Under the pieces are notes generated by a model, which did no database searches, had not been told where the DNA came from, and worked only from the letters and a program-made list of their open reading frames with translations. From Escherichia coli (GTDB lineage: Bacteria; Pseudomonadota; Gammaproteobacteria; Enterobacterales; Enterobacteriaceae): 64,000 nt of DNA. The translations under genes and the position numbers were made by a program. Positions 16,170 through 18,065 of the stretch are shown here, piece by piece (positions within the stretch are counted from its first letter, which is position 1; every line of letters begins with the position of its first letter). The DNA lies in NCBI RefSeq assembly GCF_003018235.1, contig NZ_CP027437.1; one strand, 5' to 3'.

Positions 16170-18065
16170 TCAGCCGGAAGCCGTACCGCTCGATTTGACC
16201 ATGCCGCGATAGTCCAGCGCGGCCACACCGGCATCAATACGAACCTTCCAGGCGACACCGTCAACGATGAAGCCTTCCTGCTGTTCAAGGTAAGGCTCGT
16301 CATTACCATCAAGATAAGCCACCTCGATTGTGTCCGTTCCCTGTGCTGAAAGCATGTACCATTGATTCACACTAACATCATCCAGACGAGGATCGACAAT
16401 AATATCCAGTAGCTTGTGATACGGGTTAAATATGCCGCTGTTTTTATCGGCCCCGAAAGGTGCGGTTGAATTAATCATTTGCAACGCGCGATCTTCCAGT
16501 GCTGCCGGAACTAACAGGAATTTAGGTGCAATGTTCAGCACCTCGCCGTTTTTATCTTTCTGTATGCGCATAGCGTGACGTGCTGCACTAAGCCCCGGCG
16601 TCGTCATGCCAAGATCGATAAGGTTGTTGTGTTTTTTATCAAACAAGGCCACACCATCAGACAGCTTGCCGTTTCCTGTAAGTACCAGATTAACCAGATT
16701 GCCAACCGTTCTGGCTGCTGCACGCCCCATAGCCATTGGCACGGTAGACAACTGATCAAGGTCATCATTGATTATCGCCTGGCGGGTAATACTGAAAATA
16801 TTCCCGTATGTAGCCAGCGCGATTGGCTCACCGCGATCGCTGGTGGTGATGTATTTATATTCTGCCCCTTCCGGCACTTTGTTTAATGTTGAAAAACCAT
16901 TCAGGCCAACGCGGCGGGCTTCACGGAAGTTTGACAGAGAACCTTTTTTAGTCCACTGGCGGAATGTTTCGCCGCTGTGCTCCCAGCCTGCCAGCACTGA
17001 TTTTTCAGCGCCACCAGCCAGGATGTAAGTAAAATCGCTGCTGCTGTGAGTGAATGCCGCATTAACAATCTGCGAACGCGTGCTGTAGCTGCCTGTGCTT
17101 ATGCCACGATGGGTTAATGATGCCTGTGCCATATCGAAAAGGCTCATCATGGCGTAAGGATTGCCGCGTTCGGCCTGTTCGTGACCAAGACGTGCGTTAA
17201 GCCCCTGACGCATGGCATCGCCGGTTATGTTGCCGTTATCCGTATACGCGTAGTAAAGATTTGCGGGGGTGTTTTTGTTGGTGGGTGTCGATTCCTTGCC
17301 CATAGCCAATAAAAGGCGTTCGCGCGCATCCTCAACGCTACAACCTGCGTCTGCCAGGCAGTTAATAGCCAGGTCGTTATATTTCCCGTTGAACGTGCCA
17401 AACAATTCGCGAATGCCGTTTAGTCGTTCCTGTTCGCCGCTGGCTTTGTTCTGGTTGATCATGTTTTTGATACTTTCCGGCATATTTGAAAAATCTCCGA
17501 TTCGTTTTGATTCAATTCTGGCCATTGCTGTAATCGCGGGTATAACCTCATCTGCGAAGCCGTTAGCCTTACACTCATTGCCATCCATCCAGGTTTCCGC
17601 CTCCATCATGGCGGTGATTTCCTGTTTGCTTTTTCCCGTTCTTCCGGCGTAGGTTTCCGCCATCGTGTCGCCCAGCTTGTCCATCAGGTCAGCAAAGCGG
17701 CGAACGTCGCCCGACACGCCAGAAGTAACACCACGGGGGGCATGTATCATCATCATTGCGTTAGCGGGCATCACGATGTGATCGCCACACATGGCAATAA
17801 ACGAGGCCATAGAAGCCGCTATGCCTTCAATGTGTACGATTTTTTTCGCCGGATGATTTTTCAGGGCGTTATAGATAGCCAGCCCCTGAAAGATGTCGCC
17901 GCCTGGTGAATGGATACGCAAATGGATTTCAGACACGTCACCACACGCGCTTATCTGGTCGGTTAATGTTGACGCCTGTACACCGTAACCGCCTATTTCG
18001 TCATAAATGCGAACGTGAAGGGCGTCGGCTTTTGCCTGTATGCTGTACCAGGATTTCATAGCCAT
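16170..18065 (-). CDS. Prohead serine protease (ClpP/S14-like) fused to HK97-fold major capsid protein (631 aa)
   Basis: N-terminal ~190 aa with protease-like motifs (IHSPGG, GIAASMASF, MIHAPRG); C-terminal ~370 aa resembles phage major capsid proteins (ITRQAIINDDL, FLLVPAALEDRA, GVAWKVRIDAGVAALDYRGM). Confidence 0.75.
   Translation of the reverse strand: MAMKSWYSIQAKADALHVRIYDEIGGYGVQASTLTDQISACGDVSEIHLRIHSPGGDIFQGLAIYNALKNHPAKKIVHIEGIAASMASFIAMCGDHIVMPANAMMMIHAPRGVTSGVSGDVRRFADLMDKLGDTMAETYAGRTGKSKQEITAMMEAETWMDGNECKANGFADEVIPAITAMARIESKRIGDFSNMPESIKNMINQNKASGEQERLNGIRELFGTFNGKYNDLAINCLADAGCSVEDARERLLLAMGKESTPTNKNTPANLYYAYTDNGNITGDAMRQGLNARLGHEQAERGNPYAMMSLFDMAQASLTHRGISTGSYSTRSQIVNAAFTHSSSDFTYILAGGAEKSVLAGWEHSGETFRQWTKKGSLSNFREARRVGLNGFSTLNKVPEGAEYKYITTSDRGEPIALATYGNIFSITRQAIINDDLDQLSTVPMAMGRAAARTVGNLVNLVLTGNGKLSDGVALFDKKHNNLIDLGMTTPGLSAARHAMRIQKDKNGEVLNIAPKFLLVPAALEDRALQMINSTAPFGADKNSGIFNPYHKLLDIIVDPRLDDVSVNQWYMLSAQGTDTIEVAYLDGNDEPYLEQQEGFIVDGVAWKVRIDAGVAALDYRGMVKSSGTASG

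Follow-up and report, generated by a model that had tools for sequence, protein, structure and literature searches.

A protease/scaffold/capsid fusion gene in a probable phage satellite of Escherichia coli

We analysed a stretch of 64,000 nucleotides of Escherichia coli DNA (contig NZ_CP027437.1 of assembly GCF_003018235.1; hereafter the window), in which one gene on the minus strand (16170-18065) joins a prohead protease to a major capsid protein. This gene is related to a gene of Gifsy-2, mEp460 and Stx-type lambdoid phages that encodes protease, scaffold and coat in a single polypeptide, and it is probably adapted to a satellite. It lies in a 10.3 kb island at the tRNA gene proL, which is almost certainly a phage satellite of the type of the Gram-negative phage-inducible chromosomal islands (PICIs). 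We slightly favour the view that the gene serves a helper-dependent satellite as the capsid module of its late zone and that the encoded protein forms or joins proheads that carry island DNA; for a specific role of the gene in head formation, the balance is about even. The cassette around the gene consists of the following features:

16170-18065, minus strand: protease/scaffold/capsid fusion gene, a single open frame of 631 aa
18056-18250, minus strand: open reading frame (ORF) of 64 aa, ATGA-coupled to the capsid gene, with a GGAGG Shine-Dalgarno motif (PHROG 4934, E 2.5e-48)
18520-18690, minus strand: cosUp, a segment resembling a phage cohesive-end site (cos), with a cosB-side sequence unlike that of cosDown
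15940-16139, minus strand: cosDown, which comprises a segment of the cosB side and a core that resembles cosN (CACGGGGCGGGTCGGCGCGG); it is directly preceded by a terminator-like hairpin
15621-15902, minus strand: ORF of 93 aa, the last gene of the island (PHROG 1561, E 1e-54)

An earlier, sequence-only reading of this DNA had proposed that a single ORF of 631 aa fuses a ClpP/S14-like protease to an HK97-fold capsid protein. Pfam, NCBIfam NF045540, PHROG 133 and an AlphaFold model all agree with this proposal, although the start is refined. Translation probably starts at the third codon, an ATG at 18059, which gives a product of 629 aa. This ATG overlaps the stop codon of the preceding 64-aa ORF (ATGA), a well-placed Shine-Dalgarno motif (AGGGG) ends 7 nt before it, and the 629-aa product is also the RefSeq annotation in a near-identical island (L001). 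Within the protein, residues 43-175 match the Pfam family CLP_protease (E 1.8e-32), and residues 333-625 match Phage_capsid_4 (E 3e-54). The protein is a member of NCBIfam NF045540, 'ClpP-like prohead protease/major capsid protein fusion protein', with 881.4 bits (E 4.5e-265) at a curated cut-off of 475 bits, and PHROG 133 covers it at full length. ClpP chains in the PDB align by sequence with residues 40-180.

The AlphaFold model, for which 65 relatives were used as input, has a mean predicted local distance difference test (pLDDT) score of 88.7. It consists of a ClpP-like domain (residues 1-180), a helical, scaffold-like segment (residues 197-257), a disordered stretch (residues 266-277) and an alpha/beta domain that reaches the C-terminus. 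In this model, the C-terminal part has the HK97 fold and the N-terminal part has the ClpP fold with the serine and the histidine in place. The capsid nature of the C-terminal half, on which the earlier reading depended, is thus supported by the Pfam match and by the modelled fold. The catalytic residues Ser85 (AASMAS) and His108 (MMIH) are invariant in the satellites and the phages and are found in at least 62 of 65 family representatives. Fold and residues identify the N-terminal domain as a ClpP/S14-like prohead protease, for which proteolysis and self-processing are predicted. Likewise, the modelled fold identifies the C-terminal domain as an HK97-fold major capsid protein that is predicted to assemble into icosahedral shells.

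We delimited the island against the uninterrupted proL-yejO site of K-12. The island spans 15323-25664 and is inserted between the terminator of an autotransporter gene and the gene of tRNA-Pro(GGG), proL. The features that define it are:

15323-15331: left junction with the 9-bp core GCACGAGAG, a 9-mer that is repeated at the tRNA end
25656-25664: right junction core GCACGAGAG, within the 3' end of proL
25650-25726, minus strand: tRNA-Pro(GGG) gene proL (ARAGORN, Rfam)
24190-25449, minus strand: P4-type integrase beside the tRNA gene (NCBIfam NF007246, 554 bits vs a cut-off of 434)
23478-23684, minus strand: AlpA-like helix-turn-helix (HTH) regulator/excisionase of 68 aa (PHROG 66 and PHROG 2790, 'excisionase and transcriptional regulator'; HTH regulator in RefSeq)
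20428-21828, minus strand: RepA-family helicase for replication (RefSeq name; PHROG 2850 over the full length, and primase/helicase families)
20217-20429: iteron cluster of direct and inverted TCCTCACYT repeats, a candidate replication origin

The core GCACGAGAG occurs only twice in the window, once at each junction. A search for exact direct repeats of at least 12 nt as attachment site (att) candidates found none; the junction core, which is just 9 bp long, was found via the empty K-12 site.

We conclude with high confidence that the island is a Gram-negative PICI-type phage satellite. It has an integrase at one end, beside a specific att site, and an alpA-type regulator downstream of int in the same orientation. 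The counterparts of the AlpA-like protein in sister islands match Pfam Phage_AlpA or HTH_17. Furthermore, the island has its own replication gene with a candidate origin directly 3' of it, and a packaging signal that is of helper type by sequence similarity (77-87% identity of its two cos-like sites to the cos regions of Gifsy-2-type lambdoid phages). Its 10.3 kb contain one head gene and no match to tail, lysis, portal or terminase genes. Excision induced by a helper, replication and transfer at high frequency would be expected of such an element.

The origins of Gram-negative PICIs were mapped directly 3' of the replication gene (PMC6092414), which is also where the iterons are found relative to the gene of the RepA helicase. 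Of seven TCCTCACYT matches in the 64-kb window, six fall within 190 bp of this cluster, at an expectation of 0.49 for the entire window. From this pattern, the cluster is likely the replication origin of the satellite. The same cluster gave spurious microRNA-like matches in Rfam.

The layout of the island matches the four-zone organisation of Gram-negative PICIs and their helper-embedded kin (Integration, Bro/regulatory, Replication and Late; PMC10111431). Read from the tRNA gene along the minus strand, the order is integrase, a 77-aa ORF, the AlpA-like gene, an oppositely oriented gene of the YlcI/YnfO type, an Icd-like gene, a 93-aa ORF, a DUF4222 gene, the RepA helicase gene, the iterons, an 86-aa ORF, a second recombinase gene, a PerC-family gene, cosUp, the 64-aa ORF, the capsid fusion gene, cosDown and the terminal 93-aa ORF. 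The capsid fusion is the only structural gene in this list, as the sequence-only reading had stated: the remaining island ORFs have no match to a head, tail, portal, terminase, lysis or defence family in NCBIfam, PHROGs and PADLOC. The statement that packaging needs portal and terminase from outside also holds: in these searches, no ORF of the island as delimited against the empty K-12 site matched a portal or terminase family, those next to the capsid gene included. In contrast, the description of the gene as an orphan has to be given up. It is a conserved late-zone gene of a large family of PICI satellites, its protein family is curated by name, and a lone capsid gene is present in 21 of 29 reference Gram-negative PICIs (PMC10111431). 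The late zones of PICIs may also hold extra integrases, and some PICIs carry a CLP_protease gene (PMC10111431).

Two other satellite classes were considered and rejected. Capsid-forming PICIs (cf-PICIs) do not fit, as no island ORF matches a portal, a head-tail connector or a small or large terminase subunit. With P4-like satellites, the island shares only the type of the integrase; there is no match to Psu, Sid, Delta or the alpha-primase, and the cos sites are of the lambdoid type and not of the P2 type.

The gene is carried at a nucleotide identity of at least 80% by 143 of 5,426 complete E. coli genomes, and it has its full length in 142 of these 143. The whole island at 98% identity was found in one other genome only (SCU-111), at the identical site. 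The related satellite proteins fall into two clades, of which clade 1 contains proteins of 629 aa that are 88-98% identical to the window protein and clade 2 contains proteins of 637-638 aa that are 63-64% identical. The closest phage proteins, which are 50-52% identical and colinear over the full length, are those of Stx phages, VT1-Sakai, mEp460, mEp043, mEp213, cdtI and Gifsy-2. The fused protease/coat genes of Gifsy-2 are described in PMC12315714 and are a published case (Effantin et al. 2010).

All ten related loci that we inspected are satellites. The core order of replication gene, capsid fusion gene and 93-aa ORF was present in 11 of 11 satellite contexts (among them the window, L001, L002 and L007-L013), and it persists across differing integrases, att sites and replication genes. 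For instance, L011 and L012 share the site between cspD and clpS, yet one of them has a D5-type primase and the other a RepA helicase. In most satellite loci, a small ORF stands just before the capsid gene; in L002, L010, L012 and L013 it is not annotated or called. The clade-2 loci L007-L010 are islands with int, AlpA, DUF4222, primase and single-stranded DNA-binding protein genes, and they have an additional DUF1441 gene (about 12171-12656) between the capsid gene and the 93-aa ORF, whose product is 48% identical to the small terminase subunit of a helper. The window island has no DUF1441 gene. One capsid gene, in L013, has an internal deletion, which shows that decay is real but rare.

Two of the close relatives (L002, 4500-14700; L013, 2460-11400) are inserted in lambdoid prophages of O157:H7 and further Shiga-toxin-producing E. 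coli (STEC), where they split the gene for the large terminase subunit. This is the arrangement of the helper-embedded PICIs (HE-PICIs) of PMC10111431, and the prophages concerned have their own phage-type fusion gene next to a portal gene. The islands embedded in such prophages allow us to name candidate helpers. At least one family member occurs in 2,145 of the 5,426 E. coli genomes (39.5%), and 58 of the 60 best clade-1 carriers contain at least one further member. This co-residence is supportive of the link to a helper, bearing in mind that the genomes are not independent (many belong to STEC lineages) and that the extra copy could be a satellite as well.

Next to its distribution, the gene carries a clear signal of selection. 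Between the window gene and three other clade-1 genes, the ratio of nonsynonymous to synonymous divergence (dN/dS, Nei-Gojobori) is 0.084-0.092 at a dS of 0.47-0.50. By domain, the ratio is about 0.13 for the protease, about 0.12 for the linker and scaffold, and about 0.05 for the capsid. All three domains are under strong purifying selection, as in bona fide phage genes. That the protease domain is constrained suggests that the protein passes through a real pathway of assembly and maturation.

Two cos-like segments bracket the capsid gene in the same orientation, as found by BLAST of the island against helper-type genomes; the sequence-only reading had missed this pair. cosDown (BLAST segment 15940-16136) aligns over 203 bp, at 86.7% identity, with the stretch that directly precedes the small terminase gene in an O157 lambdoid prophage (L002:2619-2815). 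Over 240 nt, it compares at 0.81 to the cos of the O157 prophage (0.82 on the cosB side) vs 0.68 to that of mEp460. For cosUp (BLAST segment 18520-18677), the match covers 163 bp at 77% identity and falls on the end of the mEp460 record; this record begins at the small terminase gene, so that the match lies just upstream of this gene. The cores of cosUp and cosDown are 86% identical, whereas their cosB sides compare at 0.62, and the cosB side of cosUp is nearer to the mEp460 and L013-prophage type (0.68-0.70 vs 0.65).

Both cos sites and the Gifsy-2 region upstream of the small terminase gene have the core GGGTCCTCCTGG...CCACGGGGCGGGTCGGCGCGGAAAAAGGCGCATTTTT in common. In our reading of the alignment, this core resembles the neighbourhood of the lambda cosN; it also resembles the cohesive end of mEp213/LLS, GGGCGGCGCGCT (PMC12315714). 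The paired arrangement is kept in six clade-1 loci and in L007. The differing cosB sides suggest that each site may serve a different helper terminase specificity, which may widen the range of helpers. Because the sites are of helper type and would let the helper terminase act, packaging appears possible despite the lone capsid gene. A search for the lambda cosN 12-mer GGGCGGCGACCT with up to two mismatches gave six matches at 5.3 expected, which is chance level, and the match at 23870 was dropped as a cos candidate as it lies inside a small ORF. Strong terminator-like hairpins are located at the edges of cosUp (18444-18477, plus strand; 18685-18702, minus strand). Given these hairpins and the one before cosDown, transcription of the capsid operon may depend on a separate promoter or on antitermination.

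The satellite proteins differ from the phage proteins in the tether that follows the protease domain. They do not have the stretch of about 35 residues rich in Pro, Ala and Gln that the phages have between the protease and the first long helix. Measured between two conserved positions, the tether of the window protein has 19 residues (residues 196-214; window about 17424-17480). Among 64 relatives, the median is 50 and the range 14-100, with one relative shorter than the window protein. We classified tethers as short (at most 30 residues) or long (at least 53 residues). All nine copies with a short tether are in non-phage contexts in which the portal gene is absent upstream, and seven of the nine are satellite-like. 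The satellite-like contexts (window, clade 2, L014-L016, L018, L019 and L024) carry an integrase, an AlpA/HTH_17 regulator, a primase or a RepA-type helicase upstream. Of the others, L017 has a plasmid-like look, with an integrase, a gene with a tape-measure domain and an IncFII RepA, and L023 is a short contig with small genes. Conversely, all six copies with a long tether are in phages, with portal, cement or tail genes adjoining (mEp460, Gifsy-2, the O157 prophage and L020-L022).

In a rough neighbour-joining tree, clades 1 and 2 form one group, whose sister is the clade of the enteric phages. Short tethers also occur in three other proteins that are dispersed between phages with long tethers, and in one larger clade the tether has 14-40 residues throughout. 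The association between tether and context is thus phylogenetic in part, though probably not as a whole. The short tether may be a determinant of head size.

From these observations, we propose the following course of events. A helper of the Gifsy-2/mEp460/Stx type would enter lytic growth, upon which the island would excise via the integrase and the AlpA-like protein and replicate from the iterons by means of the RepA helicase. Helper terminase would cut island concatemers at either cos site, and the island DNA would fill heads that bear the portal and the tail of the helper. As the island has no portal, terminase or head-completion genes, these and the tails would have to come from the helper. 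The island protein would assemble on the helper portal into proheads, either alone or mixed with the helper coat protein, and would then cut away the part of itself that contains protease and scaffold, a step that has been reported for the protein of Gifsy-2. The resulting heads would favour the satellite and may be smaller. There is precedent for a coat homologue encoded by a satellite: Ccm of SaPIbov5 sits at the pentamers of small capsids and shrinks the head (PMC8569155). The dependence on a helper, the assembly of the shell and an effect on head size are what we would expect under this reading, and redirection of capsid size, which had been suggested earlier, is a possible role.

Several observations weigh against this reading. 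In EcCICFT073, two cos sites are functional, and the genes c1499 and c1500 encode homologues of a capsid and a decoration protein (PMC6092414). Deletion of c1499 or c1500 altered neither interference nor transfer, and EcCICFT073, the only Gram-negative PICI that has been tested, was packaged in phage-sized heads (PMC6092414); c1499 is, however, a lambda E-like coat protein and unlike the fusion described here. Four island lengths amount to 41.3 kb, which fits a normal helper head of 42-46 kb, so that small heads are not required and the arithmetic does not tell the head sizes apart. No helper prophage is present in the 64-kb window. We identified no promoter of the capsid operon, and a terminator-like hairpin stands immediately upstream of cosUp. 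Lastly, the tether correlation is partly phylogenetic, with one large clade holding many of the short forms, and L017 and L023 are merely non-phage and not clearly satellite contexts.

A bolder form of the proposed head-forming role is that the island follows a third strategy, intermediate between classical PICIs, which steal heads as a whole, and cf-PICIs, which steal tails only. In this strategy, one polypeptide acts as protease, scaffold and coat and builds a satellite-specific shell on a stolen portal. Two cos sites would be tuned to different helpers, and the short tether would set a smaller triangulation number (T) to suit one or two 10-kb genomes. By our estimate from volume scaling, one or two island units may suit T=3 or T=4 heads. 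We put this forward tentatively, as an idea that is more probably wrong than right.

Among the other explanations, the one that survives best is that the gene is a dispensable spare part: a late gene captured from a helper that serves as back-up, mainly for relatives inside helper late genes, and has no specific role in this island. Capture of late genes and a back-up role have been proposed for PICIs, whose capsid knockout was tolerated (PMC10111431), sister islands are indeed embedded in the large terminase genes of helpers, and the copy in L013 is internally deleted. However, the embedded relatives interrupt the terminase gene and not the capsid gene, so a capsid back-up would be of no help to them. 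The satellite genes also form a lineage of their own, with 53-55% identity to the phage copies and 64% between the satellite clades, which argues against recent capture, and a dN/dS of about 0.09 over a dS of about 0.5 points to long-term constraint within satellites. We consider the spare-part explanation unlikely.

Somewhat less probable still is that the protein interferes with the helper, by co-assembling with its coat protein or by titrating its portal or decoration protein, and spoils helper heads as a dominant-negative subunit or decoy. Mixed capsomers are plausible given the 53-55% identity to the helper coat proteins, interference with the helper is a general trait of PICIs (PMC6739421), and we found no Rpp-like or TerS-like (small terminase) gene in the island as another source of interference. 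Yet a poison or decoy subunit has no need of an active protease, whereas here the protease has a dN/dS of 0.13 and its serine and histidine are kept; all three domains are constrained, and deletion of the capsid gene of EcCICFT073 did not relieve interference.

The sequence-only reading had also raised a remnant of a capsid-forming satellite; more broadly, the gene could be left over, without present function, from a larger satellite of this kind or from a prophage. The island is devoid of portal, connector and terminase genes, and gene loss is suggested by relatives that have more, such as those with the additional small-terminase-like DUF1441 gene and L024. With an intact frame in 142 of 143 genomes, a dN/dS of about 0.09 across all three domains, both cos copies kept, and a cassette that is conserved across integrases, att sites and replication modules, we regard a remnant as very improbable. 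The least probable explanation is that the host cell has domesticated the protein as an encapsulin-like or defence shell for its own use, independently of a helper: the match behind this idea is only 10% identical and reflects the shared fold, the sequence families are those of phage capsids, the protein has a fused prohead protease and scaffold-like helices, the gene is flanked by cos sites in a mobile island with an integrase, and there is neither a PADLOC model nor a cargo-like neighbour gene.

When comparing the island to known systems, we find the closest likeness to EcCICFT073-type PICIs and HE-PICIs (PMC6092414, PMC10111431). Shared features are the size of about 10 kb, the one-directional gene order (int, alpA-like gene, small regulators, replication gene with iterons, late zone), integration at a tRNA gene or fixed chromosomal site, a late zone that contains both a lone capsid gene and an additional integrase, a pair of cos sites, and sister islands inside the large terminase genes of helpers. 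Unlike EcCICFT073, which has the lambda E-like c1499 and the D-like c1500, the island has a fusion of the Gifsy-2 type; its cos sites are of the Gifsy-2/mEp460/Stx-prophage type and not of the lambda/phi80 type; no Rpp homologue was found in it; and it has a RepA-type helicase instead of a D5-type primase. With the Gifsy-2-type phage fusion, the gene shares the single polypeptide, colinear over its full length at 50-55% identity, the same serine and histidine, and the same NCBIfam and PHROG families. It differs in that the satellite is devoid of portal, terminase, decoration and tail genes, that the tether is about 35 residues shorter, and that a small ORF stands upstream where the phage has the portal gene.

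Ccm of SaPIbov5 (PMC8569155) is likewise a homologue of the helper coat protein, encoded by a satellite that is packaged via cos and lacks portal and terminase genes. In contrast to the protein described here, Ccm is not fused to a protease and comes from a Gram-positive system; its role at pentamers and in shrinkage of the head is experimentally established. The cf-PICIs EcCIEDL933 and EcCI2 (bioRxiv 10.1101/2022.09.08.507074; PDB 9gyi) share with the island a PICI backbone and an HK97-fold coat protein and maturation protease of their own. However, their genes also include those for portal, connectors, HNH and the two terminase subunits, which leaves only the tails for the helper to supply, whereas the island has none of these genes.

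The protein family, the class of element and the occurrence of lone capsid genes in this class are already known. What goes beyond the searchable literature are the two cos sites of distinct helper types, the quantified selection, the coupled small ORF, which recurs in several lineages, and the short tether in every non-phage (mostly satellite-like) copy sampled. A lone capsid gene is the commonest late gene of Gram-negative PICIs, and the one knockout that has been reported had no phenotype. Together with about 140 closely related islands in E. coli, of which many occur in lineages that produce Shiga toxin, the island is a better test case than EcCICFT073: one gene, clearly under selection, combines protease, scaffold and coat, candidate helpers can be named, and the tether can be swapped. 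Some candidate helpers carry a related satellite within their own terminase gene. If the protein indeed builds heads for the satellite, it would close the gap that separates head-stealing satellites from head-making ones, and it would bear on how such islands move through STEC populations alongside Stx phages.

The remaining features of the island are:

22415-22618, minus strand: Icd-like small protein (RefSeq name in L001; PHROG 6196, E 1.7e-28)
21825-22121, minus strand: DUF4222 protein, directly upstream of the replication gene throughout these islands
18981-19994, minus strand: second tyrosine recombinase of 337 aa, in the late zone (PHROG 1, E 1e-63; sub-threshold XerC/D-type NCBIfam matches)
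18709-18984, minus strand: PerC-family regulator (RefSeq name in L001; PHROG transcriptional-activator families)

The second recombinase gene overlaps the PerC-family gene, and its product is not closely similar to the mEp460 integrase. The PerC-family regulator is 36% identical to the C-terminal part of the PerC-family protein of mEp460. For the small ORFs around the capsid gene (the 93-aa ORF and the 75/64-aa ORFs), we found no Pfam family, no tblastn match in phages and no similarity to the helper TerS. The terminal 93-aa ORF is specific to satellites: it lies downstream of the capsid gene in L002 and L007-L013, and tblastn gave no match to it among 50,697 phage records. Distant counterparts of the 64-aa ORF are found upstream of the satellite capsid genes in L007, L016 and L018. 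Its AlphaFold model (pLDDT 80.7) consists of an extended segment and two helices, a topology that resembles ribbon-helix-helix proteins, so that the product possibly binds DNA. Foldseek gave no significant match to the model (best E 6.7, to SegB), and this suggestion is therefore one of topology only.

No island protein matched a defence-system model in PADLOC, and Rfam at a permissive E-value gave the tRNA only and no immunity RNA of the C4/isrK type. An apparent ORF of 353 aa with a GTG start (22412-23473, minus strand) spans the regulatory zone and was rejected, as it is almost certainly no gene and only results from the ORF calling; two genes that RefSeq annotates in L001, the Icd-like one and, on the opposite strand, the YlcI-type one, overlap with it, and the ORF itself is unannotated in L001. 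The host genes on the two sides of the island, namely the ccm genes, narP, a yejO-like autotransporter gene, proL, yejM/lapC, yejK, rplY and radD, are those of E. coli. The yejO-like autotransporter gene (12629-15220, plus strand) is intact in the window with 863 aa, whereas it is a pseudogene disrupted by IS5 in K-12 and a frameshifted fragment in SCU-111.

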